Positions 13,357 to 31,221 of a DNA stretch of 61,023 nucleotides are shown in pieces. Both the position numbers and the translations under genes were made by a program. Under the pieces are notes generated by a model. That model did no database searches and was not told where the DNA came from. It saw only the letters and a list, made by a program, of their open reading frames with translations. Source of the DNA: Vulcanimicrobiaceae bacterium (GTDB taxonomy: Bacteria > Vulcanimicrobiota > Vulcanimicrobiia > Vulcanimicrobiales > Vulcanimicrobiaceae); NCBI GenBank assembly GCA_046262595.1, contig JBHEMM010000004.1, positions 21,761-82,783 on the forward strand, in the 5' to 3' direction. The first letter of the stretch is position 1. The number at the start of each line of letters is the position of its first letter.

Positions 13357-13935
13357 CTATTCCAGCAGACCTTTGGTGGAAGGCACGCCGCCGCCCGTGA
13401 CCGCCGCCGCTTCGCGGAAGGCGCGCGCAAATGCTTTAAAGCATGCTTCACAGACGTGGTGCGCGACGTGCCCGTCCATTTGTATCAAGTGCAGCGTGAT
13501 CTTCGCATTGTCGCTGACCGCGCGGAAAAACTCCCCGATCATCTCGCTGGGCAACGCACCGAGATTTTCCCGCAGAAACGAAACGCGAAAATTTAAAAAC
13601 GGCCTGCCCGAAAGATCGACGGATGCGGCGATCAGCGCTTCGTCGAGCGGCAGCATGATCGAGCCAAAGCGCGCGAGGCCTTCTTTGGTCCCGAGCGCCT
13701 GCGCGATCGCTTTGCCGAGCGCGATGCCGACGTCCTCGATCACGTGATGGTTGTCCATTCCGTCGCCGGTCGCGCGGATCTGCAGACCGCAGCCGCTGTG
13801 TTTTGCGAATGCGTGGAGCATATGATCGAGAAAATCAACGGAGGTTGCAATGGCGGCCGGCCCGCCGTCCAGATCGAGCTGCAACTCGATCGACGTCTCG
13901 GACGTCGTGCGGCTGACCGACGCGATCCGGCTCAC
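13357..13935 (-). CDS. hisB: Imidazoleglycerol-phosphate dehydratase
   Basis: RTTSET, FLDHML, HHVIED, PLDEAL, HHVCEA, PSTKG; GTG start overlaps the gltA stop (GTGA). Confidence 0.96.
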   Translation of the reverse strand: MSRIASVSRTTSETSIELQLDLDGGPAAIATSVDFLDHMLHAFAKHSGCGLQIRATGDGMDNHHVIEDVGIALGKAIAQALGTKEGLARFGSIMLPLDEALIAASVDLSGRPFLNFRVSFLRENLGALPSEMIGEFFRAVSDNAKITLHLIQMDGHVAHHVCEACFKAFARAFREAAAVTGGGVPSTKGLLE

Positions 13936-15101: not shown

Positions 15102-15163
15102 GATGATTCCTCCAGGGATAAGCTCCCGTGCATTCGGCAGCCCGGTGCCGGGACCCCCGCACG

Positions 15164-16081
15164 CTACTCCGGAGCGTTGGCCTGGTTCTGCGCGTACTCG
15201 CGCGGATTGAAGTACCACGGCGGCAGCGAGCCGGGGAAACTGATGTCTTTGAACTCGAAGTCGACCGTGCGCCCGTCGCCGCCGTACTCGGTTTTCGAAC
15301 CGTTGGACTCAATGCGCGGCTCGACGATCCCGTGCAGACGCGTGATGAGCAGCGTGCCGCGAAGGTACCCGAGCGTGTAGGTAAAGGTCACGGGAAAGAC
15401 GCCCTGGTCGTCGGTGAACAGCCGGTCGTGCGCGACGATCTTGCGCAGTTCGTACGTCTTTTTGTCGGCCCAAATCTCGCGCAGCACGTTGCGTTCCGGA
15501 TCCCGCCGCGGACTGAGAACCAGATGCATGAGCGCGCCTTCGGAGGTAAGCGAGGTCACGTTATAGTCCGGTTCACCAATTGCAATTACCGAGGCGATGT
15601 TCTTGAACGGTTCGGCGGAAGGCTCGGGAGTCGGGACGTATGCCTGCGGGTTCGGATGCTGCCGCACGGGCGCCGCCGCAAACAGATCGACGGTAGGCGG
15701 GCCGGGGTCGGTGGCTTCGTTCAATTCCGGCCGCTGAAAGTTCAGGTCGCCCTCGGCATCGTCGCGGAAAAGACGGCGCGTCAGCGCGGCGCGGTCCTGG
15801 TTGCGCACCCAATATCTCGTGGTGTACGAACCGGCATAGTCCGGATAACCGTAGTTCGTGGTTTGCGTGCGCACCATCGTGTAGATCTCGAACGGCGGCG
15901 GCGGACGATGCGCACGGTACACCCGGCGGATGAGACCCAGCACGCGCACGGGCTGCACCGAGTTGTACGGCGGAAGGGTGAACGACGGTTGAGGCGCCGC
16001 TGTGCTTTGCGCCGGCGCGGCGTGCGGCAAAAGCAGCGCCGTAAAGAGCAGCAGCGCGAGCCAAGAATATTTCATACGCAT
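15164..16081 (-). CDS. Secreted hypothetical protein
   Basis: Signal peptide MKYSWLALLLFTALLLPHAAPA; beta-rich C-half (LHLVLSP...EIWADKKTYELRKI) loosely LolA-like. Confidence 0.75.
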   Translation of the reverse strand: MRMKYSWLALLLFTALLLPHAAPAQSTAAPQPSFTLPPYNSVQPVRVLGLIRRVYRAHRPPPPFEIYTMVRTQTTNYGYPDYAGSYTTRYWVRNQDRAALTRRLFRDDAEGDLNFQRPELNEATDPGPPTVDLFAAAPVRQHPNPQAYVPTPEPSAEPFKNIASVIAIGEPDYNVTSLTSEGALMHLVLSPRRDPERNVLREIWADKKTYELRKIVAHDRLFTDDQGVFPVTFTYTLGYLRGTLLITRLHGIVEPRIESNGSKTEYGGDGRTVDFEFKDISFPGSLPPWYFNPREYAQNQANAPE

Positions 16082-16131
16082 GTACTAGAACGCATCAACG
16101 CCTCCAATGGTCGCGCCGCGAGAACCGGTGT

Positions 16132-17079
16132 CTAACCCGCGAGCACCCGCTCGCCCGCACGCGCCAGCGCATAGCCCACGAGCCGCTCGATCAACGCATC
16201 GTACGAGATGCCCAGAGCGTTACAGGCGTCGGGCAGCAGGCTCGTGGGGGTGAGGCCGGGGAGCATGTTGATCTCCAAGATATACGGGCGGCCTTCGTTG
16301 CTCACGATGAAATCGGTGCGCGAATAGTCGCGCAGGCCAACGAGGCGGTGCGTCGAGAGCGCAAGCATTTGAATGCGCGCGCTCAAATCGTCGTCGATCT
16401 TCGCGGGAACGATGTGCGTGCTGCCGTTGGCGCCGTACTTTGCTTCGTACGTGTAAAACTGATCGCGGTTGGCGATGATCTCCACGACGGGCAGCGCCTG
16501 TTCGCCCAGAACGCCGCACGTGTACTCGCGGCCCGGGATAAACTCCTCGGCGACGATCTCACTGTAGCGTTCGGCCGCCTCGATCATGGCATGGCTCCAC
16601 TGTTCGTGCGTTTTGACGATCGACACACCGGCGCTGCTGCCTTCGAACCGCGGCTTGATCACCAGCGGCAGGTCCAGCGATCCGGGAAGGAGCGGCAGCG
16701 TGCCTCCGGTCAGATCGAAGAGATCCCATGCAGCAGTCGGCAGGCCTTCGGCGGCGCACAATTTCTTCGTGAGATGCTTGTCCATTGCGAGCGCGGCCGC
16801 TTCGATGCCGCTGCCGGTATACGGAAGGCCCAGAAAATCGAGCACGCCCTGAATCTGACCGTCCTCGCCGCCGGGGCCGTGCAGCGCGTTGAACACGATG
16901 TCCGGCTCGATGTCGCGCAGCGCATCGACGAAGCGCTCGTTGTAGTCGAGCGATCGCGCCTCATAACCGAGATCGGATAGCGCGCGCATCACGCCCGAGC
17001 CGGTCTGGATCGAGATCTCGCGCTCGGCGCTCGAACCGCCCATCACGACGGCGACCTTGATTTTTTTTCTGCTCGTCAT
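16132..17079 (-). CDS. ddl: D-alanine--D-alanine ligase
   Basis: GGSSAEREIS, LHGPGGEDG, KPRFEGSS, LEINMLPG. Confidence 0.98.
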   Translation of the reverse strand: MTSRKKIKVAVVMGGSSAEREISIQTGSGVMRALSDLGYEARSLDYNERFVDALRDIEPDIVFNALHGPGGEDGQIQGVLDFLGLPYTGSGIEAAALAMDKHLTKKLCAAEGLPTAAWDLFDLTGGTLPLLPGSLDLPLVIKPRFEGSSAGVSIVKTHEQWSHAMIEAAERYSEIVAEEFIPGREYTCGVLGEQALPVVEIIANRDQFYTYEAKYGANGSTHIVPAKIDDDLSARIQMLALSTHRLVGLRDYSRTDFIVSNEGRPYILEINMLPGLTPTSLLPDACNALGISYDALIERLVGYALARAGERVLAG

Positions 17080-17085
17080 TGCCGT

Positions 17086-18054
17086 TTAACCAAACGCCTT
17101 CATACGATCGTGGTCGATAAAGACGCCCACGAGGTGGACTTCGAGGTGCAGCTCCACTCCGAATTGCCGCGCAACTTCACGGCGGACGCGCGCCAAGAGC
17201 GTGGCAACGTCGCGCGCGCTGGCGTCAGCGCGGTTGTTGATGAAGTTAGCATGCAGCGGCGAGAGTTCCGCTCCGCCTTCGCGCCACCCCTTGGCCCCCG
17301 CCGCTTCGATCAGCCGCGCCGCCCGGTCGCCGGGCGGATTGCGGAAACAGGAGCCGGCGTTCGGCAACGCGATCGGCTGCGTTTGCTTGCGGCGCACCAG
17401 ACGCCGCTGCATCTCTTCACGCACCTGCTCCGGGTCGCCGCGCTCGAAACCGAGTACGACATGCCCGACGATCGCATCGCGCGCGAGCGTGGTGTGCCGG
17501 TAATAATACTGCACGTTGACTGGATGCGCGCGCGGCTTTGCGGGCGAATGCACGTAGACCTCGCGCACGAAATCGCCGATCTCGCGATCCGTCCCTGCGT
17601 TCATGCGCAGCGAGCCGCCAACGCTTCCGGGTATGCCGGCGAGCGACCCGATGCCGGCCGCGCCTGCCGAGGCGGCCTTTGCCGTAAGCGCCGCCATGCC
17701 GGCGGAAGCGCCGGCGCGCACGGTGACCAGCGAATCCGACGGATCCACTTCGATGACGGCAAACTCACCGGCCAGGCGCATGACCACGCCACGCATCCCG
17801 CCGTCACCGACCAGCAAATTGCTGCCGCTGCCCAAAACAAACCACGGAACGCGCCGTTTGCCGCAAAACGTCATGAGCGCTTCCAACTGCGTAACCGTCT
17901 CCACGACGATCCACGCGTCCGCGGGGCCGCCGATCTTCCAGGACGTGTACGGCGCGATCGGCTCGTCGAAGGTCACGGTGGGCACAATGGCGCGCAGAGC
18001 CGCACGATCCGTCTCGTTCAGCAGCGATCGAAGCGCTTGCGCCGCCGCACTCAT
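17086..18054 (-). CDS. murB: UDP-N-acetylmuramate dehydrogenase
   Basis: KIGGPAD, LGSGSNLLV, GIPGSVGG, NAGSCFRNP, HANFI. Confidence 0.96.
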   Translation of the reverse strand: MSAAAQALRSLLNETDRAALRAIVPTVTFDEPIAPYTSWKIGGPADAWIVVETVTQLEALMTFCGKRRVPWFVLGSGSNLLVGDGGMRGVVMRLAGEFAVIEVDPSDSLVTVRAGASAGMAALTAKAASAGAAGIGSLAGIPGSVGGSLRMNAGTDREIGDFVREVYVHSPAKPRAHPVNVQYYYRHTTLARDAIVGHVVLGFERGDPEQVREEMQRRLVRRKQTQPIALPNAGSCFRNPPGDRAARLIEAAGAKGWREGGAELSPLHANFINNRADASARDVATLLARVRREVARQFGVELHLEVHLVGVFIDHDRMKAFG

Positions 18055-19427
18055 GCGCTCACGGCCGCGTTCACATCGCAAGCCAAATCGGCCGCGACTT
18101 TCGTAATGTTTCCCGCGCCCAGCATCAGCACAAACGCCCCGTACGGCACGTTTTCGGCAAGCGCGGCGCGAAGATCGTAAACGTATTTTACGTACCGCAC
18201 CAGCGTGCCCGAAGCTTGCAGCGGCTCTCCGATGCTGCGCTCGCTGATGCCCTCCATCGGCGGCTCGGCAGCAGCGTAGACCGGCACGAGATAGACTTCA
18301 TCGGCGCCGCTGAGCGCGTTCGCAAACTCGCTCGCCAGATATGCGGTGCGCGAATAACGGTGCGGCTGAAACGCGACAATCAGCGGACCGGCGGCGACGC
18401 GCCGTGCCGCCGCGATGGTCGCGCGCACCGCCGTTGGATGGTGCGCGTAATCGTCGACAAGCGTCATGCGGGGCGTTTGCGCCAGAATTTCAAAGCGGCG
18501 GCGAACACCGCGGAATGCGCGCAGGCCGGCGGAGATCGTGGCGAACGGCAGATCCAGCGCGCGGCCCGCGCAGATTGCGGCAAGCGCGTTCTCAATGTTG
18601 ATCGTTCCCGGAACGTGCAGCTCGATCGGCCCCAGGCGCTCGCCGCCCGCGACGGCTTCAAACCGCGAGTGCAGCCCGTCGAAATGAATTTTCGCAGCGC
18701 TCACTTCGGCCGGCGGGCGCAAGCCGAACGTCACGGTGCGCGCCCGACGCGGCACGCTCGCGAGGGATCCGCTCAGCGGATTGTCGACGCCCAGTATCGC
18801 CGTTCCGTCCGCAGGCATACGCGACAGAAAGGCTTTGAACGATTCGACCAACGCGCGCAGCTGCGCATCGGAGGAGAGATGATCGTTCTCGATGTTGGTG
18901 ACGACGGCAATCGAGGGATCGAGCAATGCGAACGATCCGTCCGATTCGTCGGCTTCCGTCAGAAAATAGGGCGCGCTTCCGTGGTGCGCGTTCACGCCGC
19001 TAACCACGTCCATGCCGCCGAGCACGACGCTTGCGTCGATGCCGGCCTCGCGCAAAACCGCTGCCGTCATTGCCGTGGTCGTCGTTTTTCCGTGCGTCCC
19101 GCAGATCGCAATCCCGCGCGTATCGTTCATAATGCGGCGCAGCATTTCGCCGCGGCGCACGACGGGAATGCCGCTCGCAACGGCGTGGGCGTATTCGGGA
19201 TTCCCCGGATCGATCGCCGAGCTGACGACGACTTCACGCGCACCGTTCACGTTTTGCGCGCGGTGGCCGATGGTGACGGCCGCTCCCAGATCGCGCAGTT
19301 GCTGCAGCAGAGGCGAGTCGCCCGTGTCGGAACCGGTAACCGTTTCGCCGCGGGCTATCAGCACGCGCGCGATCGCGCTCATGCCGATGCCGCCGATGCC
19401 CACAAAGTGGACGGTCCCCTGCGTCAT
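18051..19427 (-). CDS. murC: UDP-MurNAc--L-alanine ligase
   Basis: HFVGIGGIGMS, GTHGKTTTT, EADESD, DDYAHHPT, FQPHRYSRT. Confidence 0.98.
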   Translation of the reverse strand: MTQGTVHFVGIGGIGMSAIARVLIARGETVTGSDTGDSPLLQQLRDLGAAVTIGHRAQNVNGAREVVVSSAIDPGNPEYAHAVASGIPVVRRGEMLRRIMNDTRGIAICGTHGKTTTTAMTAAVLREAGIDASVVLGGMDVVSGVNAHHGSAPYFLTEADESDGSFALLDPSIAVVTNIENDHLSSDAQLRALVESFKAFLSRMPADGTAILGVDNPLSGSLASVPRRARTVTFGLRPPAEVSAAKIHFDGLHSRFEAVAGGERLGPIELHVPGTINIENALAAICAGRALDLPFATISAGLRAFRGVRRRFEILAQTPRMTLVDDYAHHPTAVRATIAAARRVAAGPLIVAFQPHRYSRTAYLASEFANALSGADEVYLVPVYAAAEPPMEGISERSIGEPLQASGTLVRYVKYVYDLRAALAENVPYGAFVLMLGAGNITKVAADLACDVNAAVSA

Positions 19428-20539
19428 GCGGCACCCTTTCTCGCCGCTAATGCGTCAATCCGCGCGAGAATCGCCGCGCAGGCGTCCCGTCTGCCAAGCG
19501 AGCGCGCGGCCTCGCGCATGGCCGCAAGGCGCTCGGGGTGCATCAGTTCACGCATCGTCCACCACAGCGAATCGGCATCGAGCGAGCGGTCTTCAAGAAG
19601 AGCGGCGGCGCGCGCCGTCTCAAAAACCTTCGCATTGCGGAACTGATGGTCGTCCGAGGCGTACGGATACGGAATCAAAATCGAAGGAATGCCGAGTGCG
19701 GCGAACTCGGCCAACGTCGAGGCACCCGAACGCGCGATGGCAAGATCGGCCGCTTCATACGCGTCCGCCATGTCGGGTAGGTACGCATGCAGCGCGACGA
19801 GATTGTTTTCGAACGGCTCGCGTTCCTCGGCTTGCATATAGCCGAAGTCGCGCGGTCCGCACACGTGAAGCACTTGCCAATCCGGCGGAAGCGCGCGCCG
19901 CGTAACGAGCGCAGCAATCGTTTCATTGATCGTGCGTGCGCCCTGACTGCCGCCGATCGCCAGAATTGTTTTACGCGAAGGGTCGAGCCCCAAGCGCCGC
20001 GCCGCTTCGATGCGGTTGCGCCCGCGCAGCAGCGAAGCGCGCACCGGAATGCCCGTCCGCCGGTACTTCTTTCCGAAGTGCGCCCCTGCCGCATCGTATG
20101 CGCCCCACACTTCGTCGACCAGCGGCGCGAGCAGGCGGTTCGTCAGGCCAGGCTGCGCATTGGGTTCGAGCAGCGCAAAACGTGCGCGCAGCAAACCGCA
20201 CGAACGCAGGAGCCGCGCCGCAACCATGACGGGAAAGCACACGTAGCCGCCGGTCGCGACGACGAGATCCGGCGCGAACGCGCGCAGTTCTCGCAGCGCT
20301 TGTGCGACGCCCAAAGCGTTGATCGCCGCCGTTCTGATCGCCGCGAGCGAAGCGCTGCGCTGCAGCGGCTCGGCGGCGATGGTGCGCAGTTCGTAGCCTG
20401 CCTGCGGCACGATCGTGGTTTCGAGCCGTCCTTGCGTGCCGATGAAACGCACACCCGCGCGCGTGCCGAGCGCATCGGCGAGCGCAACCGCCGGATAGAG
20501 GTGTCCGCCTGTTCCGCCGCCGGCAAAAAGAATCCTCAC
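19424..20539 (-). CDS. murG: Lipid I GlcNAc transferase
   Basis: GGGTGGH, GGSQGA, RSGAST, HQFRNA; GTG overlaps the ftsW stop. Confidence 0.97.
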   Translation of the reverse strand: MRILFAGGGTGGHLYPAVALADALGTRAGVRFIGTQGRLETTIVPQAGYELRTIAAEPLQRSASLAAIRTAAINALGVAQALRELRAFAPDLVVATGGYVCFPVMVAARLLRSCGLLRARFALLEPNAQPGLTNRLLAPLVDEVWGAYDAAGAHFGKKYRRTGIPVRASLLRGRNRIEAARRLGLDPSRKTILAIGGSQGARTINETIAALVTRRALPPDWQVLHVCGPRDFGYMQAEEREPFENNLVALHAYLPDMADAYEAADLAIARSGASTLAEFAALGIPSILIPYPYASDDHQFRNAKVFETARAAALLEDRSLDADSLWWTMRELMHPERLAAMREAARSLGRRDACAAILARIDALAARKGAA

Positions 20540-21702
20540 TCCAAATTGACGCGGCGGAAGCGGCCCACGTTCATGATCAGCGCGACGCACAGCAAACAAA
20601 CGATCAGCGAGCTGCCTCCGAACGAAATGAACGGCAAGGGCACACCCGTGACGGGCCACGAGGACGTGACCACGCCGATGTTCACGAATGCTTGGATCGT
20701 GATGAGCGCCGCGCAGCCGCTTGCTAAAAAGAATCCGAAGCGATCCGGGGCTGCGATCGCGATGCGGATCGCGCGGTAGGCGAAGAACAGAAACAGAATC
20801 ACGACCGCCATCGTGCCGGCGAGCCCGAACTCTTCGCCAAGAACGGAAAAAATGAAGTCGGTATACTGCTCGGGCAGATAGAAGAACTTCGCGCGCGATT
20901 CGCCGGCGCCCACGCCCGTCAAGCCGCCGCTGCCGAGCGCCAGCAGCGACTGCACGATATGGAAGCCGGTATTTTGCGGATCTTTCCACGGGTTGATGAA
21001 GGCGAAGATGCGCGCGCGTTTGTATGGGCTGGTCAAGACCATGAGGATTGTGGGCGGCAGCGTGACGAGGATCACCGCAATCAAGTGCTCGATGCGCGCG
21101 CCGGCCGCAAACAGCATCGCGAACGCCGTGAAGACGAGCAGGCTCGCGGTGCCCATGTCCGGTTCGGCAAACACCAAGCCCGCCATCAGGCCGGTGACGA
21201 GCAGCACCGGGAACAAGCCGCGTGAAAGCGACTTTATCTGATCCGCGCGCATCGAGAGGACCGCCGAAAGGTACAGCACCAGCCCGAGCTTTGCAAACTC
21301 CGAGGGCTGCAGCGAGATCGCACCGCCGCCGATCCAGCGCTTCGCGCCGTTCACCGATACGCCGATATGCGGTACGAGCACCGCAGCCAAGCTCCCGATG
21401 CACAGCACCAGCGCATACGGGGCGAGCGCGCGCAGTTTGCGGTAGTCGATCTTGTAAGCGAAGTACGCCAGAAACAGTCCCACCGCGAGATACACGGCCT
21501 GATGTTTCACGTAGTAGGCGGTGTCGCGGTGATCGGCATACGCCTGGGCGCTCGAGGCGCTGAAGATCATGATCAAGCCAATCGCCACCAGGGTGGCAAC
21601 CGAACCGAACAGCCAAACGTCGGGCGGCGCCGGAACGAAGGCGCGGATCGTTTCCGCTTTTGACGCCCGCGAAGGCGCTGCCGCGCGCACGGACGTCTTC
21701 AG
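20536..21702 (-). CDS. ftsW: SEDS peptidoglycan polymerase FtsW
   Basis: NGAKRWI, QPSEFAK, EPDMGT, LPEQYTDFIF, LPFISFGGSS; start CTG 21702 or GTG 21690. Confidence 0.96.
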   Translation of the reverse strand: MKTSVRAAAPSRASKAETIRAFVPAPPDVWLFGSVATLVAIGLIMIFSASSAQAYADHRDTAYYVKHQAVYLAVGLFLAYFAYKIDYRKLRALAPYALVLCIGSLAAVLVPHIGVSVNGAKRWIGGGAISLQPSEFAKLGLVLYLSAVLSMRADQIKSLSRGLFPVLLVTGLMAGLVFAEPDMGTASLLVFTAFAMLFAAGARIEHLIAVILVTLPPTILMVLTSPYKRARIFAFINPWKDPQNTGFHIVQSLLALGSGGLTGVGAGESRAKFFYLPEQYTDFIFSVLGEEFGLAGTMAVVILFLFFAYRAIRIAIAAPDRFGFFLASGCAALITIQAFVNIGVVTSSWPVTGVPLPFISFGGSSLIVCLLCVALIMNVGRFRRVNLE

Positions 21703-23105
21703 CGGCCGGCACCTGAAGGCGAATGGTCCGTAAGCCCATGCACCGCGGCGATAAATTGCGTACCGCGATCTTCGGCGGACGCAAACATGTCGAACGAGGC
21801 GCAGGCCGGCGAGAGCAGCACGACGGCGCCGGGCGCGGCGTGACGCGCGGCGCGCTGCACCGCATCTTCCATCGACACGGCAGGCTCGATCGGCGTGCGG
21901 TAGACGTGCGCTGCGAGCTCCTCCGCCGTTTCGCCGATCGTGACGAGCGTTTTCACGCGCGCGTCGATCGCGCGTCCGAGTTCGGTGAAGTCGGTGTTTT
22001 TCGATTTGCCGCCCGCAATGAGCACGATCGGGCGATCGTATGACTGCAGCGCGGCGATGACCGACCCGGGATTGGTGGCTTTGCTGTCGTCCACGAAAAG
22101 CACACCGCCGATGGTGGCGACCGGCTGCAAGCGGTGCGCCATCGCCGAAAAACTCCGCACACCCTGGCGCAGTTGCACCGGATCGCAGTCCGCCGCCAGA
22201 GCCGCAAGGAGCGCCGCCATCACATTGCAGACGTTGTGCGGGCCGGCAAGCGGAATCTCCGCGACGGGCATAATCTCCACCGGGCGCGGATCGCCGCGGA
22301 ACGGCGCATACGTAATGACGCCGCGCTGCACGTACATCGAGGCGTCCCGGTGTGCTTGCGCCAGCGTGAACCACAGCTGCCGCGCGTGCACGCGCACCTC
22401 CGCCGACGTTTTGAGCCAGTGCAGCTCCGCTACGCGCGGGTCGTCCAGGTTGCCGATGAAAAAATCCCGCTCGCTTTGGTTCGCGAAGATGCGGTACTTC
22501 GCTTCGGCGTACTCGTCGATCGAGAAATACCGGTCGAGATGATCGGGCGAGATGTTCAGAATCACCGAGATGCGCGGATGGAACGAGCGGATGGCTTCGA
22601 GTTGAAACGAAGAGACTTCCGCGACGACCCATTGATCGGGCGCCGTTCCGCCCACTTCCGCAATCAGCGGATTACCGATATTTCCGCCCACGCGCACTTC
22701 TTTGCCGGCGGTGCGCAGCAGATGCCCGACAAGCGAGGTGGTCGTGGACTTGCCCTTGGTGCCCGTAACGGCAACCACGGGCGCCTTGCACAAGCGGTAC
22801 GCCACTTCGATCTCGCTGTACACCGGAACGTTCGCGTTTTGCACGGCGCGCACGAGGGGCCCGTTGAGCGGCACGCCCGGCGAGAGCACGGCCAACGTCA
22901 GTTCGCGTTCGACGGAAGGCAGCGCCGCAGGTTCGATAAAAACGGCGCCGAGCGACTCGACGTACGCAATGGCTTGCTGCAGCTGTTCGCGCGGCTTCTC
23001 GTCGACCGCAACTACGCGCGCGCCACGGGCGCGCAGCACCTGGGCGCTGGCCTGGCCGCTGCGGCCCAAACCGATGATCAGGATCGTATCGCCGCTATCG
23101 AACAA
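21699..23105 (-). CDS. murD: UDP-MurNAc-L-Ala--D-glutamate ligase
   Basis: GLGRSG, GTKGKSTTT, EVSSFQL, DHLDRY, DSKATN, LSPACASFD. Confidence 0.98.
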   Translation of the reverse strand: MFDSGDTILIIGLGRSGQASAQVLRARGARVVAVDEKPREQLQQAIAYVESLGAVFIEPAALPSVERELTLAVLSPGVPLNGPLVRAVQNANVPVYSEIEVAYRLCKAPVVAVTGTKGKSTTTSLVGHLLRTAGKEVRVGGNIGNPLIAEVGGTAPDQWVVAEVSSFQLEAIRSFHPRISVILNISPDHLDRYFSIDEYAEAKYRIFANQSERDFFIGNLDDPRVAELHWLKTSAEVRVHARQLWFTLAQAHRDASMYVQRGVITYAPFRGDPRPVEIMPVAEIPLAGPHNVCNVMAALLAALAADCDPVQLRQGVRSFSAMAHRLQPVATIGGVLFVDDSKATNPGSVIAALQSYDRPIVLIAGGKSKNTDFTELGRAIDARVKTLVTIGETAEELAAHVYRTPIEPAVSMEDAVQRAARHAAPGAVVLLSPACASFDMFASAEDRGTQFIAAVHGLTDHSPSGAGR

Positions 23106-24052
23106 GGGCTAGACCCAAGAGCGACACCGCCGCCGAAGCGAGCCAAAAGCGCGCCGTCACGATCGTCTCCGGCCACCCGGAGATTTCGAAATGATGATGC
23201 AGCGGACTCATCTTGAAGATCCGTTTTCCTCCGGTGCGTTTGAAATACGTCACTTGAATGATAACCGAAAGCGCTTCCGCAACAAAGACGCCGCCGATCA
23301 AAATCAGCAGCAGCATCTCGCCGCTCAAGATCGCAACACCCGCGAGCAGCGCGCCCAGCGCGAGTGAACCGGTATCGCCCATGAACACCTTTGCGGGATG
23401 CCGGTTAAACACCAAAAATCCAAAACATGCGCCCATTCCCAGCAGCGCTGCGAACGCCGGCGCGGCGCTTTGCGTGTGGACGAACGCCGGGAGCGCGAGA
23501 ACAAGCAGCGGGGGCACCATCGTGCCGGCAGCCAAACCGTCTAAGCCGTCGGTGAGGTTCACCGCATGCATCGTACCGCTCACGGCGAGAATTCCCAAAG
23601 CCAGCCAAAGCCAGTGCGGCACGGTCAGCACGTACGCGCCGGTGCGAAACAGCACGTCGGCGTTGATATTGCCCTCGACGCCGAAGCGCAAGAACATCAC
23701 GGCAGCAAGCGCAGTGAGGAGATATTTGGTGCGCGCGCATCCCGGCGTTCTTGCCGGAGCGGATTGCCTGGTAGTCGTCGGCGAAGCCGACGAGCGCACA
23801 AGCGGCGACAAGCAGCAGGAGCGCCATCGCTGCGCGATCGGCGTGCAGTGCGAGCAGCGGCACCAGCGCCGCCACGAATGCGATGCCGCCCATCGTCGGC
23901 GTGCCGGATTTTTTCTGATGCGTCTGCGGCGCATCTTCATACGCATGCTGGCGCAGTTGGAAGCGCCGCAGCAGCGGAATCAGGGCGGCACAGCAGAGCA
24001 CGCACACAAGGAAGCCGGCGGCGGCGATTTCCAGGAACAGTGCAACGGTCAA
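23095..24052 (-). CDS. mraY: Phospho-MurNAc-pentapeptide transferase, split by a frameshift near 23731-23738
   Basis: N-half KSGTPTMGG and GFADD in ORF 23405-24052; C-half NLTDGLDGL, FMGDTGS and PLHHHFE in ORF 23095-23946. Confidence 0.95.
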
Positions 24053-24753
24053 GCGGGCCGCTCCGCGAAGAGCGGGTTGGGGCCTTCACCGCGCCATTTC
24101 AATACCACGATGGGCGTCTGTTCGTCGCCGTTGCCGTGGGGATTGGCGAGCAGCGCATACTCCACGCTGCGCCGGTTTACGCCCCGAGATGCGCCGAGCA
24201 CTTTTGCCTTTTGTAGATCGTTCGCGTCGACGACCGTGCACGCGATGCCGGTGCGCTCGCACACGGATTGCGCGAACGCGTCGGGACGCTGCGGCGCGAA
24301 GACGATATTGCGTTCGAAGGGCGGCAACGTCCCCGTGTAGCCGTCGATCGCCGTGATCGCTTCCCCGAGGATCTCATAGAACATGCCGCGGCGCCCGAAC
24401 GCGCGGCCGATCACCTGCATCACCGCCGCGAAAAGAACTTTGCCGGGACCGGTTTGGTCGATGACGATCTGCAGCGACTCGGGCTGGCTCACGGTCGCCA
24501 GCGCGCCCGCATGCCGGGAAAGCACGTACGCCAGTTTACCCGGGCGCACGAGCTCGGCCGGCACCGACTGGCCTTGCGCGATCGCGACCGCGGTTTCCGA
24601 AACGGCGAGCACGTCACCCGGGCGCGCGATGCCGCGCACGCAGCGCGCGATCAGCGCCGTCAGATCGTCGCGGGGGGCGACCAGCGGCGTGCGCACGGGA
24701 AGCGCGGCGATGCCCTCGGGGAGTTCGGGGCGCACGACACGCAGCTGTTTCAC
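24049..24753 (-). CDS. CofE / F420-0:gamma-glutamyl ligase-like protein
   Basis: PVRTPLV...GDVLAVSETAVAIAQG and GNGDEQTPIVV resemble CofE-family motifs; 4-nt overlaps with both neighbours. Confidence 0.8.
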   Translation of the reverse strand: MKQLRVVRPELPEGIAALPVRTPLVAPRDDLTALIARCVRGIARPGDVLAVSETAVAIAQGQSVPAELVRPGKLAYVLSRHAGALATVSQPESLQIVIDQTGPGKVLFAAVMQVIGRAFGRRGMFYEILGEAITAIDGYTGTLPPFERNIVFAPQRPDAFAQSVCERTGIACTVVDANDLQKAKVLGASRGVNRRSVEYALLANPHGNGDEQTPIVVLKWRGEGPNPLFAERPA

Positions 24754-26123
24754 GCGCTCGCCGCCGGAAGAAGGCGTTGCACGATCTGCTCCATCGCGTA
24801 CTTGCGGGAACCTTTGAGCAGCACCGCATCACCCGGGCCGGCGTGCAGGCGGATCCAATGCGCGGCCTCCTCGTTGGTCTCGTACCGCACCAGGCGCGTA
24901 CGCGGAAATCCCGCCGCAAGCGCGCCTCCGATGAGCGCGCCCGCAAACTCGCCGCCCGCCAGAACCGTGTCCATATGGACCGCCGCCGCCTTCGCTCCCA
25001 CGCGCTCGTGCATCTCGTGGGCTTGGGGCCCGAGTTCGGCCATGCCGGCAAGCACGGCGATGCGGCGGCGCGCCGGTTCGGCGGCGAACGCATCGAGCGC
25101 GGCGAGCATGCCGCTTAAGTTCGCGTTGTACGCGTCGTAGATCAAACGGGGCCCGCTGCTGAGCGCGATGCTTTCGAAGCGTCCGAGCGGTAACGTCAGT
25201 CCGCGAATCGCGCCCACAATCTGCTGCTCTGAAACGCCGAGCAGCAGCGCGCCGGCAATCGCTGCCGCCAGGTTCATGCGGTTGTGTTCGCCCGGCAGCC
25301 GGATATCGACCGCGTACGCCGAGGGTTCGCGCTCCGCGGTGAGCACCAACGTTTTTGAATCGGGAATCCATACTCCGGGCGCCCCCGCGGGTACCGTTCC
25401 GAACCACAACGGCGGCGTGGGCAAGCCGCCCGCGCGCGCCAGCGATTCGGCGTCGTTCGCACCGAGCACCGCTTGCGCACCGGAGGCGAACAGTCCCCAC
25501 TTGGTTTCGGCCAGACGTTCGCGCGAACCGAAGATCTCCAGATGCGCCTCGCCGATATTGGTCAGCACGCCGACATGCGGACGCGCGATCGCAACAAGCT
25601 CGGCAATATCGTGTACGTGCCGCGCGCCGAGCTCCACGACGACAAAACGGTGCAACGGCTGCGCGCGCAGCAGCAGTTTGCTCACGCCGATCTCGTTGTT
25701 TTCATTTCCGGGCGTCGCCAGAACGGCGTCCTCACCGAATGCGGCGGCGAGCAACTGCGCGAGCAGATGTTTGGTGGTGGTCTTGCCCGCACTGCCCGTA
25801 ATGGCAACCACGCGCCCTTCAAACAGTTCGCGGTTCGCCGCGGCAAGATCCATGTAAGCGCGCTTGGTGTCTGCGACAACCAGGGCGGGAGTATCGTCGG
25901 GGATGACGCCCGCGTCGTCGACCACGAGCGCAGCCGCGCCGCGCTGAATGGCTTGCGGGACGTACGCATGTCCGTCGAAATGCTCGCCGCGCAGCGCTAA
26001 AAACGTCTCTCCCGCAACCAGCCCGCGCGAGTCGGTGGCGATTCGCAAGGCGGCCGGAAAACGCGATTGGCGATACACCGCTCCGCCGGTCGCGGCACGC
26101 GCCCGCTCGATCGAAAGCATCAT
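24750..26123 (-). CDS. murF: UDP-MurNAc-tripeptide--D-Ala-D-Ala ligase
   Basis: TDSR, GEHFDGH, GSAGKTTTK, NNEIG, DAYNAN, LLKGSR. Confidence 0.97.
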   Translation of the reverse strand: MMLSIERARAATGGAVYRQSRFPAALRIATDSRGLVAGETFLALRGEHFDGHAYVPQAIQRGAAALVVDDAGVIPDDTPALVVADTKRAYMDLAAANRELFEGRVVAITGSAGKTTTKHLLAQLLAAAFGEDAVLATPGNENNEIGVSKLLLRAQPLHRFVVVELGARHVHDIAELVAIARPHVGVLTNIGEAHLEIFGSRERLAETKWGLFASGAQAVLGANDAESLARAGGLPTPPLWFGTVPAGAPGVWIPDSKTLVLTAEREPSAYAVDIRLPGEHNRMNLAAAIAGALLLGVSEQQIVGAIRGLTLPLGRFESIALSSGPRLIYDAYNANLSGMLAALDAFAAEPARRRIAVLAGMAELGPQAHEMHERVGAKAAAVHMDTVLAGGEFAGALIGGALAAGFPRTRLVRYETNEEAAHWIRLHAGPGDAVLLKGSRKYAMEQIVQRLLPAASA

Positions 26124-27586
26124 GCGCCTGCGGCCGTGCGCGAGGCAATCGCTTCGCGCACGACTTGGGCGTCGTCGAACGGCAGCACGTCTGCGCCGGC
26201 GATCTGATAGTTCTCGTGCCCTTTGCCCGCAACGACCACGATGTCGCCGGGCTGCGCGGCGGCGATTGCGGAAAAGATCGCGCGGCGCCGGTCGAGCTCG
26301 ACGGCGTAGCGCGCGCCGGTCATGCCTTGCGTGATCTCTAGCGCGATTGCTTCGGGCGCTTCCGTACGCGGATTGTCCGAGGTGACGTACGCGTAATCCG
26401 CAAGGCGGGAGGCCGCCGCGCCCATGAGCGGGCGCTTCCCGCGATCGCGATCGCCGCCGCAGCCGAAGACGAGCAGCACGCGCTGCGCCGTTAACTCGCG
26501 CGCCGCCCGCAGCACGTTTTCGAGCGCATCAGGCGTGTGCGCGTAGTCAACGATCGCATCCACGCCCTCGCCGCGCACGTGTTCCATCCGGCCCCTCACC
26601 CGCTGCAGTGACGCCAAACCGCGCGCGGAAGCGCTGTCCGCGACGCCGAACGCGCGCGCGACGGCAAGCGCGCACAAGGCGTTCGAAACATTGAAACGCC
26701 CGGGCAGGCGCACTTCGAAAGCGGTGCCGTTCAGCGTGAAGGTGCTTCCGCCGGTGCGAACTTCAACGCTTTTGGGACGGATGTCCGCACCGGCGTGCAT
26801 CGCATACGTGGTAACGGCCTTGCGTGCACGCAGCTCGCGCGCCCATCGCTCGCCCGTTTCATCGTCCATATTCAGCACGCAGGCGCGCGCAGCGTCGAGC
26901 AGTTTGCGTTTCGCCGCCGCATAGGCTTCGAAGGTGCCGTGAAAGTCCAAATGATCGCGGGTCAGGTTCGTGAGCGCGCCCACCTCGAACCGCACCTCGC
27001 CCACGCGTTCGAGCGCAAGCGCATGCGAGCTCACTTCCATGGCCACTGCGTGCGCTCCGAGCGAACGCATCTGCGCGAGCAAACCGTGCAACTGCGGCGC
27101 GAGCGGCGTCGTATTTGCCAGAGGCCACTCGCGCGCGCCCAGGCGCGCCCCGATCGTCCCAATCGTTCCGCACACGACGCCGCCCTCGCGCAGCATCGCC
27201 GCGATCATCTGCGTCGTGGTGGTTTTTCCGTTTGTCCCCGTGACGCCCGCGACATGCATCGCCGCGGAGGGGCTTCCATAAAAGACGTCCGCGATCTGCG
27301 AGGCTGCCCGTGCGCTGTCGGGAACGACGATCGTGGTTACGCCGTGCGTTTCGATCGCTTCTTCGGCGACGACCGCGACCGCACCGCGCGTGACGGCGGA
27401 CGCGATAAAACGGTGACCGTCGCTGCGCTCGCCGCGCATTGCAATAAACAGCGCACCGGGCATCACTTCGCGCGAATCGATCGCGATCGAGCTGATGCTC
27501 ACGTCACGCGCTCCGATCACGCGCGTGTTTTGCGCGAGATGCTCGATCAGCGTTTCTAGCCGGATATGCTGCCCGGGCGGTTCCAT
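26120..27586 (-). CDS. murE: UDP-MurNAc-dipeptide--diaminopimelate ligase
   Basis: GTNGKTTT, MEVSSHAL, DYAHTPD, DNPR (mDAP-type motif), GKGHE. Confidence 0.98.
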   Translation of the reverse strand: MEPPGQHIRLETLIEHLAQNTRVIGARDVSISSIAIDSREVMPGALFIAMRGERSDGHRFIASAVTRGAVAVVAEEAIETHGVTTIVVPDSARAASQIADVFYGSPSAAMHVAGVTGTNGKTTTTQMIAAMLREGGVVCGTIGTIGARLGAREWPLANTTPLAPQLHGLLAQMRSLGAHAVAMEVSSHALALERVGEVRFEVGALTNLTRDHLDFHGTFEAYAAAKRKLLDAARACVLNMDDETGERWARELRARKAVTTYAMHAGADIRPKSVEVRTGGSTFTLNGTAFEVRLPGRFNVSNALCALAVARAFGVADSASARGLASLQRVRGRMEHVRGEGVDAIVDYAHTPDALENVLRAARELTAQRVLLVFGCGGDRDRGKRPLMGAAASRLADYAYVTSDNPRTEAPEAIALEITQGMTGARYAVELDRRRAIFSAIAAAQPGDIVVVAGKGHENYQIAGADVLPFDDAQVVREAIASRTAAGA

Positions 27587-27587
27587 C

Positions 27588-29375
27588 CTAAAGCGGCTTC
27601 GCCGCGGCGCCCAGGCGGACCAAGCGTTTCCGCGCCGGTGCCGGCGAGGACAGCGGCGGCGGCGTCACGGCCGGCAGCACGCCCGAGCGCAGCATCGCCG
27701 CTTTCGCAATGGCGTCGAATGCCGGTGCCGCGACGACCGAGCCGTAGATTGCGTCCTGCGGCTGTTCGACTTTCACAAAGATCACGTACCGCGGATGCTC
27801 GTACGGAATCATGCCGATGAAGGAGGCGATGTACCCGTCGTAGCGTCCGTTGATGACCGCCTGCGCCGTGCCGGTTTTGCCGGCCGTGGTGTAGCCGGCG
27901 ATCTTTGCCGACGGATTGCCCGTGCCGTGCACGACGACCGCGCGCAGATACCCGCGCAGCATTTGCGCCGTCCGTTCGCTGAAGGCACGGCGTTCGATTT
28001 GTTCGGGATAAGAGTAGATCGCGTTGCCTTGCGCATCGAGAATGGATTTGACGATCCGCGGGCGCACCAGCAACCCGCCGTTCGCGATCGCGCAGTAAAA
28101 ACGGGCCATCGCGATCGGCGTCACCGAGACGCCTTGTCCGAACGACATGGTCGCGAGCGAGCTGCCGCTCCACGTGCCGGGCGCCGGCACCATGCCGGGC
28201 GATTCACTCGAGAGCCCGATCTGCGTGCGGCGTGAAAATCCCAGGCGCTCCTCCATGTCGTAGAACGGGCGCGATCCGATCGCCATAGCGACGCGTGCCG
28301 CGCCGACGTTGAGCGAATCGGCGATGATCGTTTCCAGCGTATCGCCTGACGGGCTGGGCGTGAGCCCGTCGAGCGCGTTGAAAATCCGTCTTCCGCCGAC
28401 CTCAAGCGGCCCGTTCGCATTGAAGCGGTCGGTGCTGCTCACGCGTCCGCTTTCGAGCGCGGCGGCAGCGGTGACGAGCTTATAGGTCGATCCCGGTTCG
28501 TACAGATCCGAAACGGCGCGGTTGCGGTAACTGTCGGCCGGATATTTCCAGTATTGATTCGGATCGTAGTGCGGATAGTTCGCCATGGCCAACACTTCGC
28601 CGGTGTACGGATCCATGACGATCGCGGTGCCGTTTTTTGCGTGATACCCGAGCACTTGCTTACGCAGCGCCGCTTCGGCCGTGTATTGCAGATACGAATC
28701 GATCGTGAGTTGCAGCGAGAGGCCCGGCTTTGCGGGCTTGAGCACGTGCGTGCTGCCGAACGGCAGCGGCCGTCCGAATTCATCCGCCTCCAGCGTCATG
28801 CGTCCGGACGAGCCTTTGAGCAGATCGTCGAAGGTGTACTCCATGCCGCTCAGGCCGTTTTCATCGATGCCGACGAAGCCGAGCAGCGTGGATGCGCTTT
28901 GGCCGGCGATGTCGATGCGCCGCCCCGTGTCTTCTTCGATGACGGCAACGCCGGTCAGATTAAGCGCCTGCACTTTGTCGGCCACGTCGTGCGTGATCTT
29001 GCGCGCGATCCAAACGAACTGCATGTGCCGGTCGTGCATGAGCGAATGCGCAGCGGGGCTGACGCGCCCCAAAACGTTGGACAACGCGGCGATCGTTTGA
29101 TCGGCGTCCCCGAAATCGTGCGGAACCGCGTACACGCTTTCGGAGGGCAGGCTGTGCACCAGCGTATTGCCGTCGCGATCCAGAATGCTGCCGCGGCGCG
29201 CGTACACTTCCACCGTATCGCTGCGCTGATCCAGCGCTTCCTTTGCGTAGACGGGGCCTTTGATTACCTGCACGTCGAAGAGCCGCCAGCAGAGATAACT
29301 GCCGACGAGCAGCAGCGCATAAAACAGCACTTTCGCCCGCCGGGGCCCGACGCGCGCGAAGGTCCGTTTGTGCAT
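27588..29375 (-). CDS. ftsI: Class B penicillin-binding protein (FtsI/PBP2B)
   Basis: N-terminal TM, RGSILDRDG, EPGSTYK (SxxK), SLN, KTGTAQ. Confidence 0.95.
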   Translation of the reverse strand: MHKRTFARVGPRRAKVLFYALLLVGSYLCWRLFDVQVIKGPVYAKEALDQRSDTVEVYARRGSILDRDGNTLVHSLPSESVYAVPHDFGDADQTIAALSNVLGRVSPAAHSLMHDRHMQFVWIARKITHDVADKVQALNLTGVAVIEEDTGRRIDIAGQSASTLLGFVGIDENGLSGMEYTFDDLLKGSSGRMTLEADEFGRPLPFGSTHVLKPAKPGLSLQLTIDSYLQYTAEAALRKQVLGYHAKNGTAIVMDPYTGEVLAMANYPHYDPNQYWKYPADSYRNRAVSDLYEPGSTYKLVTAAAALESGRVSSTDRFNANGPLEVGGRRIFNALDGLTPSPSGDTLETIIADSLNVGAARVAMAIGSRPFYDMEERLGFSRRTQIGLSSESPGMVPAPGTWSGSSLATMSFGQGVSVTPIAMARFYCAIANGGLLVRPRIVKSILDAQGNAIYSYPEQIERRAFSERTAQMLRGYLRAVVVHGTGNPSAKIAGYTTAGKTGTAQAVINGRYDGYIASFIGMIPYEHPRYVIFVKVEQPQDAIYGSVVAAPAFDAIAKAAMLRSGVLPAVTPPPLSSPAPARKRLVRLGAAAKPL

Positions 29376-29392
29376 CAGAAGTTTGCGCTAAC

Positions 29393-29818
29393 CTACTTCG
29401 CGCCGAAAAGCGTGGCCAGGCCCGCCAGAAACGCCAGGTGCGTTCCGGTCTGCGCACGGACGGGGCCCGGCATCGTTATCAAGGCGAACTGCTGCGGATC
29501 CTGCATCTGCAAACGCGCCGCCAGCATGCTCAAGCGATCGTCGCCGCGCAGTACGGCAAGCTGTTCGTCCAAGCGCGCCGTCTGCGCTTGCAGCGCCGTG
29601 CGCTGATGCTGCGCCTTCACGTACCCGTAGTTCAAACTCGTCAGTCGCGCGTTCAAAGCCAGATACGTCATGAAGAGCGCGAGTGCAACGACCAGACACG
29701 CGCTGAACTGCACCAAACTCTGATAGCGGGCGCGTTCCTTGCGTGAAATGCCCCGCTGCGTGGCGCGCTTGGCGGTGCGGACCCGCTGCGGGGGCGCGAG
29801 TCGCGGCTGTGCGAGCAT
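29393..29818 (-). CDS. ftsL: FtsL-like cell division protein
   Basis: Basic N-terminus, one TM and a coiled coil; sits between rsmH and ftsI. Confidence 0.75.
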   Translation of the reverse strand: MLAQPRLAPPQRVRTAKRATQRGISRKERARYQSLVQFSACLVVALALFMTYLALNARLTSLNYGYVKAQHQRTALQAQTARLDEQLAVLRGDDRLSMLAARLQMQDPQQFALITMPGPVRAQTGTHLAFLAGLATLFGAK

Positions 29819-30693
29819 TAGCTGGCCTTCCGTTGGGCGGCGCGCAGTTTTGCGCTGCGCGCGCGAGGGTTGCGGTCGATCTCCGCTTGAGCGGGAACGA
29901 TCGGTTTACGGGTGATTACGTCCAGGCGCGCGTCCTCGCGCAGCCCGTGCTTGACGATCCGGTCTTCAAGCGAATGAAAGCTGATCGCAACGATGCGGCC
30001 GGCAGTACGCAAGCGTGCCGCTGCGCCGTCCAAGCTTTCGCGCAGCGCATCGAGCTCGTCGTTCACCGCAATGCGCAGCGCTTGGAACACGCGCGTGGCG
30101 GGATGAATCCGTTCGCGGTGCCCCGGACGGTGCAGCATGCCGCTGATCAATTGCGCGAACTCCACCGTTCGCGAGGGCAGCTTTCCGGCCGCGCGCCGCT
30201 GGACGATCAGCCGCGCGATCCGGCGCGCCGAGCGCTCTTGGCCGTAATGGAAGAAGATGTCGGCAAGCTCCGATTCGCTGCTGGTCATTAAGACGTCGTA
30301 GGCGCTCTTGCCCGTGTTCGGATTCATGCGCATATCGAGCGGGGCGGATTCGCGGAACGAAAAGCCGCGCGAAGCGTCATCAAGTTGCATGGACGAGACC
30401 CCCAAATCGTAGAGCACGCCGTCCACCGACTCGATCTCCAGCCGGTCTAAGGCGTTCGAGAGTTCGCGGAAGTTCGAAGGTTCGAAAGTGAAAGCGCGAT
30501 GAACGACTTGTGCGGCACGGTCGGGCGCCTGCGGATCGGCATCGAGCGCGATCAAGCGGCCCGAGTGCAAGCGCTCCAAAATCGCGCGCGAGTGGCCGCC
30601 CGCCCCAAACGTCGCATCGACATAGATCCCATCCGGCCGGATAGCCAGCAACTCCAGCGCCTGCGGCAAGAGGACCGGAACGTGTTCGCTCAT
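29818..30693 (-). CDS. rsmH: 16S rRNA m4C1402 methyltransferase
   Basis: HVPVLL, DATFGAGGHS, DLGVSSMQLD, SFHSLEDR, NPRARSAKLR. Confidence 0.98.
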   Translation of the reverse strand: MSEHVPVLLPQALELLAIRPDGIYVDATFGAGGHSRAILERLHSGRLIALDADPQAPDRAAQVVHRAFTFEPSNFRELSNALDRLEIESVDGVLYDLGVSSMQLDDASRGFSFRESAPLDMRMNPNTGKSAYDVLMTSSESELADIFFHYGQERSARRIARLIVQRRAAGKLPSRTVEFAQLISGMLHRPGHRERIHPATRVFQALRIAVNDELDALRESLDGAAARLRTAGRIVAISFHSLEDRIVKHGLREDARLDVITRKPIVPAQAEIDRNPRARSAKLRAAQRKAS

Positions 30694-30708
30694 CGTTCCG
30701 CTCGCTCA

Positions 30709-31152
30709 TTAATAGAGTCCAAGGTCGGCCATGAGGTCGGCCACGTTGCCTTCGGGTGCGGCGTGCGCCCCGAACCGCTCTTTCGCCCAGACTTCGATCC
30801 GCGTGAACGAGCCGATGGAGACGACCTCGCGGTCGATGCCGGCGTACGAACGAAGCGCCGCCGGCAAGAGCAGCCGCCCTTGGGCGTCGCACGCGACCTC
30901 TTCGGTATGCGCGAAGACCTGGCGCACGAAGCGCCGGTAACGGTCGTCCTTGCGGGGCGCAGCTTCAAGACGGGCGCAGAACTCGTCCCAAGCGGCTTGC
31001 GGGTAAAGAACCAGGCACGGGTCGGGCTGCGCGATGGTCAAAATGAAGCCGGCGCCGAGGCGCTCCCGGAAGCGCGCGGGAACAATGAGGCGGCCCTTTT
31101 CATCAAGAGCATGCTCCACCGAGCCCGTAAAACGCGGCAACTCCGAGTGCAA
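30709..31152 (-). CDS. mraZ: Division/cell wall cluster regulator MraZ
   Basis: Two DxxGR motifs (LDEKGRLIVP, CDAQGRLLLP); TTG start after GGAGG. Confidence 0.96.
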   Translation of the reverse strand: MHSELPRFTGSVEHALDEKGRLIVPARFRERLGAGFILTIAQPDPCLVLYPQAAWDEFCARLEAAPRKDDRYRRFVRQVFAHTEEVACDAQGRLLLPAALRSYAGIDREVVSIGSFTRIEVWAKERFGAHAAPEGNVADLMADLGLY

Positions 31153-31169
31153 TATGCCTCCCTCTCCAA

Positions 31170-31221
31170 CCACTTTGCACCACTTCCCACCACTATACGC
31201 TTTTGTAGGGGGGCGATGCAA
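31170..31221 (-). promoter_or_regulatory. dcw promoter with MraZ-binding direct repeats
   Basis: TTGCAT-N18-TATAGT overlapping three AGTGG boxes at 10-nt period (31194, 31184, 31174). Confidence 0.85.

Follow-up and report, generated by a model that had tools for sequence, protein, structure and literature searches.

What is a relative of the coenzyme F420-0:gamma-glutamyl ligase CofE doing in the middle of a division and cell wall (dcw) gene cluster? The question arises from a 61,023-nucleotide stretch of DNA from a soil bacterium of the Vulcanimicrobiaceae (contig JBHEMM010000004.1 of GenBank assembly GCA_046262595.1), called the window below, in which a gene that we name cofEL lies between murF and mraY. 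A first reading of the letters, here the original prediction, had taken its product for an amide ligase that modifies peptidoglycan precursors instead of making F420. We find that cofEL is best described as encoding a protein that has the CofE fold yet lies outside the CofE equivalog family, a new functional variant dedicated to peptidoglycan synthesis. The protein would be a cytoplasmic enzyme recruited from cofactor tailoring to the synthesis of cell-wall precursors.

The gene is tightly embedded in the cluster. Its GTG start codon (24753-24751) overlaps the TGA stop codon of murF (24752-24750) in a GTGA at 24750-24753, and its own TGA (24051-24049) overlaps the TTG that opens the MraY frame (24052-24050) in a TTGA at 24049-24052. 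The G+C content at third codon positions is 0.83, a codon bias as in a real gene, and the N-termini of cofEL and its orthologues line up in the alignment. Together, the reading frame, the two overlaps and the codon bias confirm the 234-residue gene, overlapping both neighbours, that the original prediction described.

That prediction had also seen CofE-family motifs in the protein, and the likeness is borne out by profiles and by structure. The Pfam profile PF01996 (F420_ligase) matches at 41.8 bits, above its gathering cut-off of 25, with the match limited to residues 20-101 (profile positions 2-81 of 218). When eight genuine CofE sequences from F420-positive genomes of the same phylum were used as the reference, hhalign returned a homology probability of 97.9% over residues 24-191. 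An AlphaFold model, for which 41 diverse family members served as input, reached a mean predicted local distance difference test score (pLDDT) of 92.7; the sole relative that Foldseek found for it in the PDB was CofE of Archaeoglobus fulgidus (E 4e-10, template modelling scores 0.58/0.55). Aligned to 2PHN (2phn_A) with VIA-align, the model gave a Z of 14.7 and a root-mean-square deviation of 3.0 A over 180 residues at 25% identity, and the next chain had a Z of 4.6. The protein is thus like CofE over nearly the full length of the fold and by profile-detectable homology, and it keeps two of the landmarks of CofE: in the hhalign alignment D137 falls on the Asp of the GVDxSN motif, and the acidic segment 176-179 that follows the central strand is retained, with residues 178-182 aligning with DSFGR.

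Such a likeness might simply mean that cofEL is a genuine F420-0:gamma-glutamyl ligase that has come to lie in the dcw cluster by happenstance. The PF01996 score above the gathering threshold, CofE as the only structural match and the fact that several sources name orthologues 'coenzyme F420-0:L-glutamate ligase' all speak for this, and we nevertheless regard it as close to refuted. Unlike CofE, cofEL falls far short of the equivalog model TIGR01916 (26.9 bits, where 180.65 would be needed), it scores 25.8 against a cut-off of 274 with NF009809, and it has lost the FGRxWR stretch. Partners for F420 synthesis are missing as well. In the window genome (2.42 Mb in 122 contigs, 89.7% complete) cofEL is the one PF01996 gene, cofD was not found, and cofC and cofH have matches below cut-off only. 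Apart from cofEL, none of the 46 window open reading frames scanned belongs to an F420 family, in agreement with the earlier statement that the window holds no F420 genes. Two adjacent CofH/CofG-like radical S-adenosylmethionine genes on contig C31 of genome G000 (C31:6317-9258; L002, L003) score 311 and 256 bits against a cut-off of 374; MqnC/MqnE, of the menaquinone (futalosine) pathway, are the likelier identity.

The same picture emerges from the phylum, of which we sampled 201 genomes; the tallies include a few genomes flagged as unpublished, and no statement rests on those alone. The three families that carry the dcw-embedded gene (f1-f3) comprise 131 genomes besides that of the window, and neither genuine cofE nor cofD was found in any of the 131. 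Both genes do occur elsewhere in the phylum, genuine cofE in 39 of the 201 genomes and cofD (E <= 1e-20) in 38, all within families f6 and f18-f21. In several of these F420-positive relatives the true cofE adjoins cofD and the cofEL paralogue is additional to it, and in the F420-positive genomes whose cofEL locus was examined (G003, G052, G078) cofEL is located apart from cofE. Because F420-positive genomes hold both genes, at different loci, we conclude that cofEL and genuine cofE are distinct paralogues with distinct jobs. The proposal that cofEL works outside F420 synthesis therefore stands: it fails the equivalog model, no cofD was found in its genome, and neither genuine cofE nor cofD was found in the 131 relatives.

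If it is not F420, what is the gene tied to? A cofEL homologue is present in 198 of the 201 phylum genomes sampled; of the 170 genomes with a completeness of 90% or more, 169 have one. We compared the 80 best genome loci, picked by their match to cofEL and labelled Eremiobacterota or Vulcanimicrobiota, with one Verrucomicrobiia. In every one of the 80, mraY follows cofEL; murF lies directly upstream in 79, and the remaining locus begins at a contig end. Locus L041, from a second order of the class, and locus L040, from family f3, share the arrangement murF-cofEL-mraY, which is not due to chance. Median identity to the window protein over the 80 loci is 72% for cofEL and 55.5% for murF, 57.9% for murE and 63.4% for murD (range for murF, murE, murD and ftsI, 55.5-63.4%), which makes cofEL the most conserved dcw protein in this set, a figure that is biased because the loci were selected by similarity to cofEL.

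The link to MurF goes beyond adjacency. In all four genomes of genus g43 (family f3) that were checked, MurF and cofEL are fused in frame into one protein of approximately 740-810 amino acids (L040, L221, L222 and L223 in G134, G087, G071 and G135, respectively), joined by a stop-free linker rich in Ala, Pro and Glu of about 45 amino acids or more (47 in L040). Open frames of 444-860 amino acids in family f1 were considered as further fusions and rejected, since murF and cofEL are in different frames in 30 of 30 f1 loci. At L073:5788-7668 there is a single open frame for a cofEL::MraY protein of 556 amino acids (P0517), which may be real or an indel artefact, as a single wrong base where the two genes overlap (TTGA) would be enough to produce such a frame.

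The positions of the gene and its neighbours in the window are collected in Table 1. The window holds the complete cluster, whose order, kept in the related loci, is mraZ, rsmH, ftsL-like, ftsI, murE, murF, cofEL, mraY, murD, ftsW, murG, murC, murB, ddl and ftsQ-like; the names ftsL-like, ftsW and ftsQ-like are given without a Pfam match, from position and inter-locus tblastn only.

Table 1. Coordinates of cofEL, its two overlapping neighbours and the surrounding cluster in the window
Feature	Position	Strand	Description and evidence
cofEL (CofE-like gene)	24049-24753	minus	234 amino acids; diverged CofE fold; open reading frame, overlaps, PF01996, structural model
murF (UDP-MurNAc-tripeptide:D-Ala-D-Ala ligase)	24750-26123	minus	Mur_ligase, Mur_ligase_M and Mur_ligase_C domains
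mraY	23095-24052	minus	MraY_sig1 and Glycos_transf_4; two frames, 23405-24052 and 23095-23946
dcw cluster	15164-31221	minus	Pfam scans; order kept in related loci

The mraY gene of the window assembly is split: a (CG)n run near 23730 (within 23700-23790) shifts its reading frame. With an mraY orthologue as the tblastn query, the change of frame falls near 23732-23736, and residues 1-122 and 122-334 of the orthologue match in different frames. An assembly error is more likely than a pseudogene, because the assembly consists of 122 contigs and mraY is essential. Elsewhere in the window, citrate synthase follows the end of the cluster after ddl and the ftsQ-like open reading frame (13932-16081), and neither ftsA nor ftsZ lies downstream of the cluster within the window. 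Genes for an LptF/LptG-type lipopolysaccharide export permease and for apolipoprotein N-acyltransferase (Lnt), at 36452-37606 and 40815-42581, fit a diderm, lipopolysaccharide-bearing envelope.

Outside the class the CofE-like domain is seen in other company. An exhaustive search of 1.84 billion representatives yielded 697 clusters at E <= 0.001, with alignments that span the full domain, and look-alikes in the ESM Atlas come from Bacillota, Actinomycetota, Cyanobacteriota, Caldisericota and Chloroflexota. A Pfam scan of 32 of the 697 cluster representatives found extra domains in most: Amidase_3 in six, an AsnB-like glutamine amidotransferase in four, Glycos_transf_4 (MraY) in three, TPR repeats in two, and MurF, Polysacc_deac_1 (after a transmembrane segment), an M20 peptidase, GNAT and adenylate kinase in one each; nine have PF01996 alone and three have no Pfam match. 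Among 98 longer homologues, Mur-ligase domains accompany PF01996 in 26 by hand count, and AsnB fusions account for 44. In the AsnB fusions, of 840-1020 amino acids (P0544-P0610; P0268, P0222, P0243), the CofE-like domain is attached to an entire AsnB-type glutamine amidotransferase/synthetase; among those with a named source are proteins of Terrabacter, Mycobacteriales and Candidatus Roizmanbacteria. Spirochaete members of the family are of the Amidase_3-fused type.

These results qualify one point of the original prediction, for which homologues without dcw linkage would have spoken against a role in the cell wall. Within the class the linkage is complete (80 of 80 loci), and distant homologues lie outside the dcw cluster but beside or fused to other cell-wall genes. 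Across lineages, then, the family is genetically linked to peptidoglycan precursor genes: through the dcw cluster, through MurF fusions, through the glutamate racemase gene murI in 44 of 64 Negativicutes-type loci (described below), and through fusions to Amidase_3, AsnB-like and deacetylase domains. The tie between cofEL and peptidoglycan precursor synthesis is thus upheld by synteny, by translational coupling, by the in-frame MurF fusion and by the peptidoglycan-related fusions and neighbours in other phyla.

The fusions can also be read differently. An enzyme of the cell-wall pathway need not decorate the stem peptide at all; it could make or edit a small building block, a carboxylate or an amine, for use by MurF or at a later step, or recycle peptides by re-ligating or trimming the products of amidases. 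Fusions to Amidase_3 (six of 32), M20 peptidase and GNAT (one each) would suit such an enzyme, and in two Amidase_3 fusions no signal peptide was seen by eye, which suggests cytoplasmic work on released peptides. In Negativicutes the gene lies near that for glutamate racemase, a supplier of building blocks. However, a protein that is fused to MurF, or encoded between murF and mraY, is better explained by a step on the completed nucleotide precursor, and the presence of ddl in the same cluster implies that an ordinary supply of D-Ala-D-Ala exists. We therefore consider a building-block or recycling role possible but doubtful.

We suggest instead that cofEL encodes a nucleoside triphosphate- and metal-dependent amide ligase for the decoration of a free stem-peptide carboxylate, on UDP-N-acetylmuramoyl (UDP-MurNAc)-pentapeptide or on lipid I, an assignment whose prospects we judge to be evenly balanced. 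According to published accounts, CofE uses GTP and two Mn2+ or other divalent metals to activate a carboxylate to an acyl phosphate, which an amine then attacks, and its authors liken the mechanism to that of MurD (PMC10861534, PMC8498797). By extension, cofEL would bind a nucleoside triphosphate and a divalent metal at a conserved acidic pocket and would activate a stem-peptide carboxylate as an acyl phosphate, the candidates being the alpha-carboxylate of D-iso-Glu and the epsilon-carboxylate of meso-diaminopimelate (mDAP). An amine, be it ammonia, an amino acid or a diamine, would next be coupled to the activated carboxylate. In the window organism this reaction would fall between those of MurF and MraY, with UDP-MurNAc-pentapeptide or lipid I as the substrate.

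Suitable carboxylates are probably at hand. The MurE of the window carries a DNPR motif, which we take to mark the mDAP-adding enzyme, and the stem peptide probably ends L-Ala-D-Glu-mDAP-D-Ala-D-Ala, offering free carboxylates on D-Glu and mDAP. MurT_C was found in none of 61 genomes of the class, and thus the usual system for amidation of D-Glu was not found there. It is the chemistry of CofE, the free D-Glu and mDAP carboxylates and the failure to find MurT that lead us to adopt the amide-ligase reading. Known enzymes do the same kind of job: MurT/GatD and the AsnB-type enzymes (LtsA/AsnB1) activate stem-peptide carboxylates in an ATP-dependent manner and form amides on the precursor, much as we propose for cofEL. 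Their folds, Mur-ligase or Asn-synthetase, are unrelated to the CofE fold of cofEL. That AsnB-like and CofE-like domains are fused in other phyla argues that the two activities are complementary, not redundant.

How well is the putative active site preserved? CofE itself, a ligase that depends on GTP and on Mn2+ or Mg2+, is a dimer with its active site at the subunit interface. Across 137 diverse full-length family members, T22 is conserved in 94%, D47 in 99%, E53 in 87%, D137 in 97%, D176 in 99%, N178 in 95%, D179 in 92%, N204 in 99% and T213 in 96%, and judged by this pattern the near-invariant polar residues look like an active site. Several observations nevertheless weigh against a ligase of the CofE type acting on peptidoglycan precursors. 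The HK..SKAEGR of CofE has become SE(T)..AIAQG(R/Q) in the cofEL family, with the HK and SK residues replaced; FGRxWR has become NDLGK, with the WR pair replaced; and the conserved Glu near the C-terminus of CofE aligns with an invariant Asn (in an alignment made by eye, not by hhalign). As the CofE signature is kept only in part, binding of a nucleoside triphosphate by cofEL is an assumption. Moreover, Arg62, found in 92% of the family, is Gln in the window protein and in all ten other Baltobacteraceae-type sequences aligned. Distant homologues, including those in distant classes of the window's own phylum, are outside the dcw cluster, and the family also occurs in monoderm Actinomycetota and in one lineage of the candidate phyla radiation, a distribution for which no one type of envelope accounts. 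If the cofEL::MraY frame at L073 is real and MraY has a periplasmic N-terminus, the CofE-like domain of this protein would be on the wrong side of the membrane. The changed nucleotide-contact motifs and the Arg62Gln replacement, along with a chemistry that is carried over from CofE, are the reasons why we hold our confidence in the ligase at an even balance. The codon of residue 62 is at 24568-24570 of the window; the Arg of this AIxQGR motif is also kept by genuine CofE, and families f2 and f3 keep it.

The same changes raise the question of whether cofEL might be catalytically dead, an adaptor or regulator that passes UDP-MurNAc-pentapeptide from MurF to MraY or controls the flux into the first membrane step. 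The altered nucleotide-contacting motifs, the loss of Arg62 in the window lineage, the MurF fusion and the tight coupling to mraY would all suit such a protein. We think it unlikely. The Asp/Asn cluster is near-invariant across phyla and architectures, as is usual for an active site; a fusion to adenylate kinase suggests the use of a nucleotide; and the domain persists at loci that lack the murF and mraY neighbourhood.

A further line of evidence comes from a partner of the CofE-like domain that we call X. Our genome-resolved neighbourhoods cover Eremiobacterota loci, and the Negativicutes-type neighbourhoods come from 80 metagenome loci (L135-L214), which are not independent, several being of the same species. 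Here cofEL takes a stand-alone form of 223 amino acids that shares 72-88% identity among Sporomusa, Methylomusa, Pelosinus, Thermosinus, Propionispora and Lucifera, and exact-sequence look-ups added members in Anaerovibrio lipolyticus, Selenomonas, Megasphaera and Mitsuokella. In all 76 loci with enough upstream sequence, a gene for a 183-residue protein, X, lies directly upstream (e.g. L140:7432-7980). A racemase-like gene is found within 1.5 kb upstream in 44 of 64 loci, and both of the two such genes that were scored, at 213 and 200 bits, exceed the cut-off of 146.65 set for TIGR00067, a glutamate racemase model. Downstream genes vary (rph, rdgB, a metallophosphoesterase, or a block of HgdB, activase, hydantoinase and HDAC genes). 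In distant classes of the window phylum, a protein of about 400 amino acids consists of an N-terminal transmembrane helix, a domain X of about 180 amino acids and the CofE-like domain. The 183-residue protein is homologous to domain X of these fused forms, with eight invariant residues in 12 sequences, and because it matches the N-terminal half of the 400-residue fusions, X and the CofE-like domain are a pair that occurs either split or fused.

X belongs to no family in Pfam or NCBIfam. It is predicted to form one N-terminal helix followed by a beta-sandwich (pLDDT 88.7), and its structural neighbours are generic, the best being the luminal domain of TMEM106B at a Z of 8.2 with many others at 7-8. 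Because basic residues follow the helix, we infer that both the sandwich and the enzyme lie on the cytoplasmic side, at the surface of the membrane. The search for X gave no match in the window genome, in two single-contig genomes of the same family (G011, G036) or in one of family f3 (G134), while G007 and G003, the positive controls, gave E values of 1e-62 to 1e-65. Since X was not found in these genomes, the dcw-embedded cofEL appears to have swapped a membrane anchor for coupling to MurF and MraY.

An anchor of this kind could also serve an enzyme that acts on another envelope polymer or lipid (for example a lipid-linked glycan or a secondary cell-wall polymer), in which case the position in the dcw cluster would reflect no more than co-regulation with growth. 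X would place the enzyme at the inner membrane face, judging its topology from the flanking charges, where many lipid-linked precursors are made, and the CsaB-like family is present in the class. On the other hand, every informative partner is a peptidoglycan enzyme (MurF, MraY, MurI, Amidase_3, AsnB-like, peptidoglycan-type deacetylase), and for that reason we rate this explanation as quite improbable.

For the anchored form, amide-bond formation on the stem peptide can be given a more specific shape. The diamine-adding activity of Selenomonas reportedly works on lipid intermediates, according to biochemistry of the 1980s. According to two published studies, the peptidoglycan of Negativicutes carries cadaverine or putrescine on the alpha-carboxylate of D-Glu, and this is needed by OmpM for tethering (PMC10628300, 10.1101/2021.05.31.446380). 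The searched portions of the full-text literature name no gene for the step. The activity, described in Selenomonas ruminantium and Veillonella, makes an amide bond on a carboxylate, as a CofE-type enzyme does, and the X-cofEL pair is present in Selenomonas, Anaerovibrio, Megasphaera, Mitsuokella, Sporomusa, Pelosinus, Propionispora and Thermosinus, a match by distribution and chemistry only. The chemistry fits in principle, the pair would sit at the membrane face beside murI, and it occurs in these genera; on these grounds we tentatively propose, while considering it rather unlikely, that X-cofEL is the long-unidentified enzyme that attaches cadaverine or putrescine to the D-Glu alpha-carboxylate in Negativicutes, and that the anchor-less dcw form of Eremiobacteria likewise decorates with an amine, though a step sooner, when the product of MurF is still soluble. 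In some loci a polyamine-related gene, for S-adenosylmethionine decarboxylase or an HDAC-like protein, lies a few genes downstream of the pair (L176:9785-10591; L140:12182-13504). The HDAC-like family includes acetylpolyamine amidohydrolases, and such neighbours are suggestive only.

The role in outer-membrane tethering that the original prediction had associated with such amines is, in contrast, not supported for the class of the window. A CsaB-like pyruvyl transferase family is present in 59 of 61 class genomes, that of the window included, and SLH domains in only 34 of 61; none was found in the window genome. With CsaB-like proteins so widespread and SLH domains in little more than half of the genomes, a polyamine tether is not needed to explain the envelope of the class, and the idea that the class needs polyaminated peptidoglycan for SLH-based tethering finds no support in this census. 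For the phylum's only cultured member, the diderm Vulcanimicrobium alpinus WC8-2, the available part of PMC9758169 reports no peptidoglycan chemistry.

New in this work are the confirmed MurF fusion, a cross-phylum census of peptidoglycan-related architectures, the partner X in split and fused form, the co-existence of cofEL with genuine CofE and CofD, and the link to the polyamine-bearing Negativicutes. The MurF fusion, the fusions to Amidase_3, AsnB-like and deacetylase domains, and the obligate X anchor near a glutamate racemase in Negativicutes turn an odd gene into a family with a testable role, and the automatic name 'coenzyme F420-0:L-glutamate ligase' misleads in organisms without F420. 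To our knowledge, the list of cytoplasmic steps in peptidoglycan synthesis is considered complete. If our reading of cofEL as an amide ligase is correct, the textbook pathway would gain a step, performed by a strongly constrained enzyme that operates between MurF and MraY throughout a globally abundant soil phylum, and that extra step would be a possible lineage-specific target for drugs or probes. X-cofEL is, in addition, a concrete candidate for the peptidoglycan polyamination gene behind OmpM-based outer-membrane tethering in diderm Firmicutes. Should the diamine proposal prove true, amine decoration of the stem peptide by a CofE-fold enzyme would be an old and widespread trait of the Terrabacteria.

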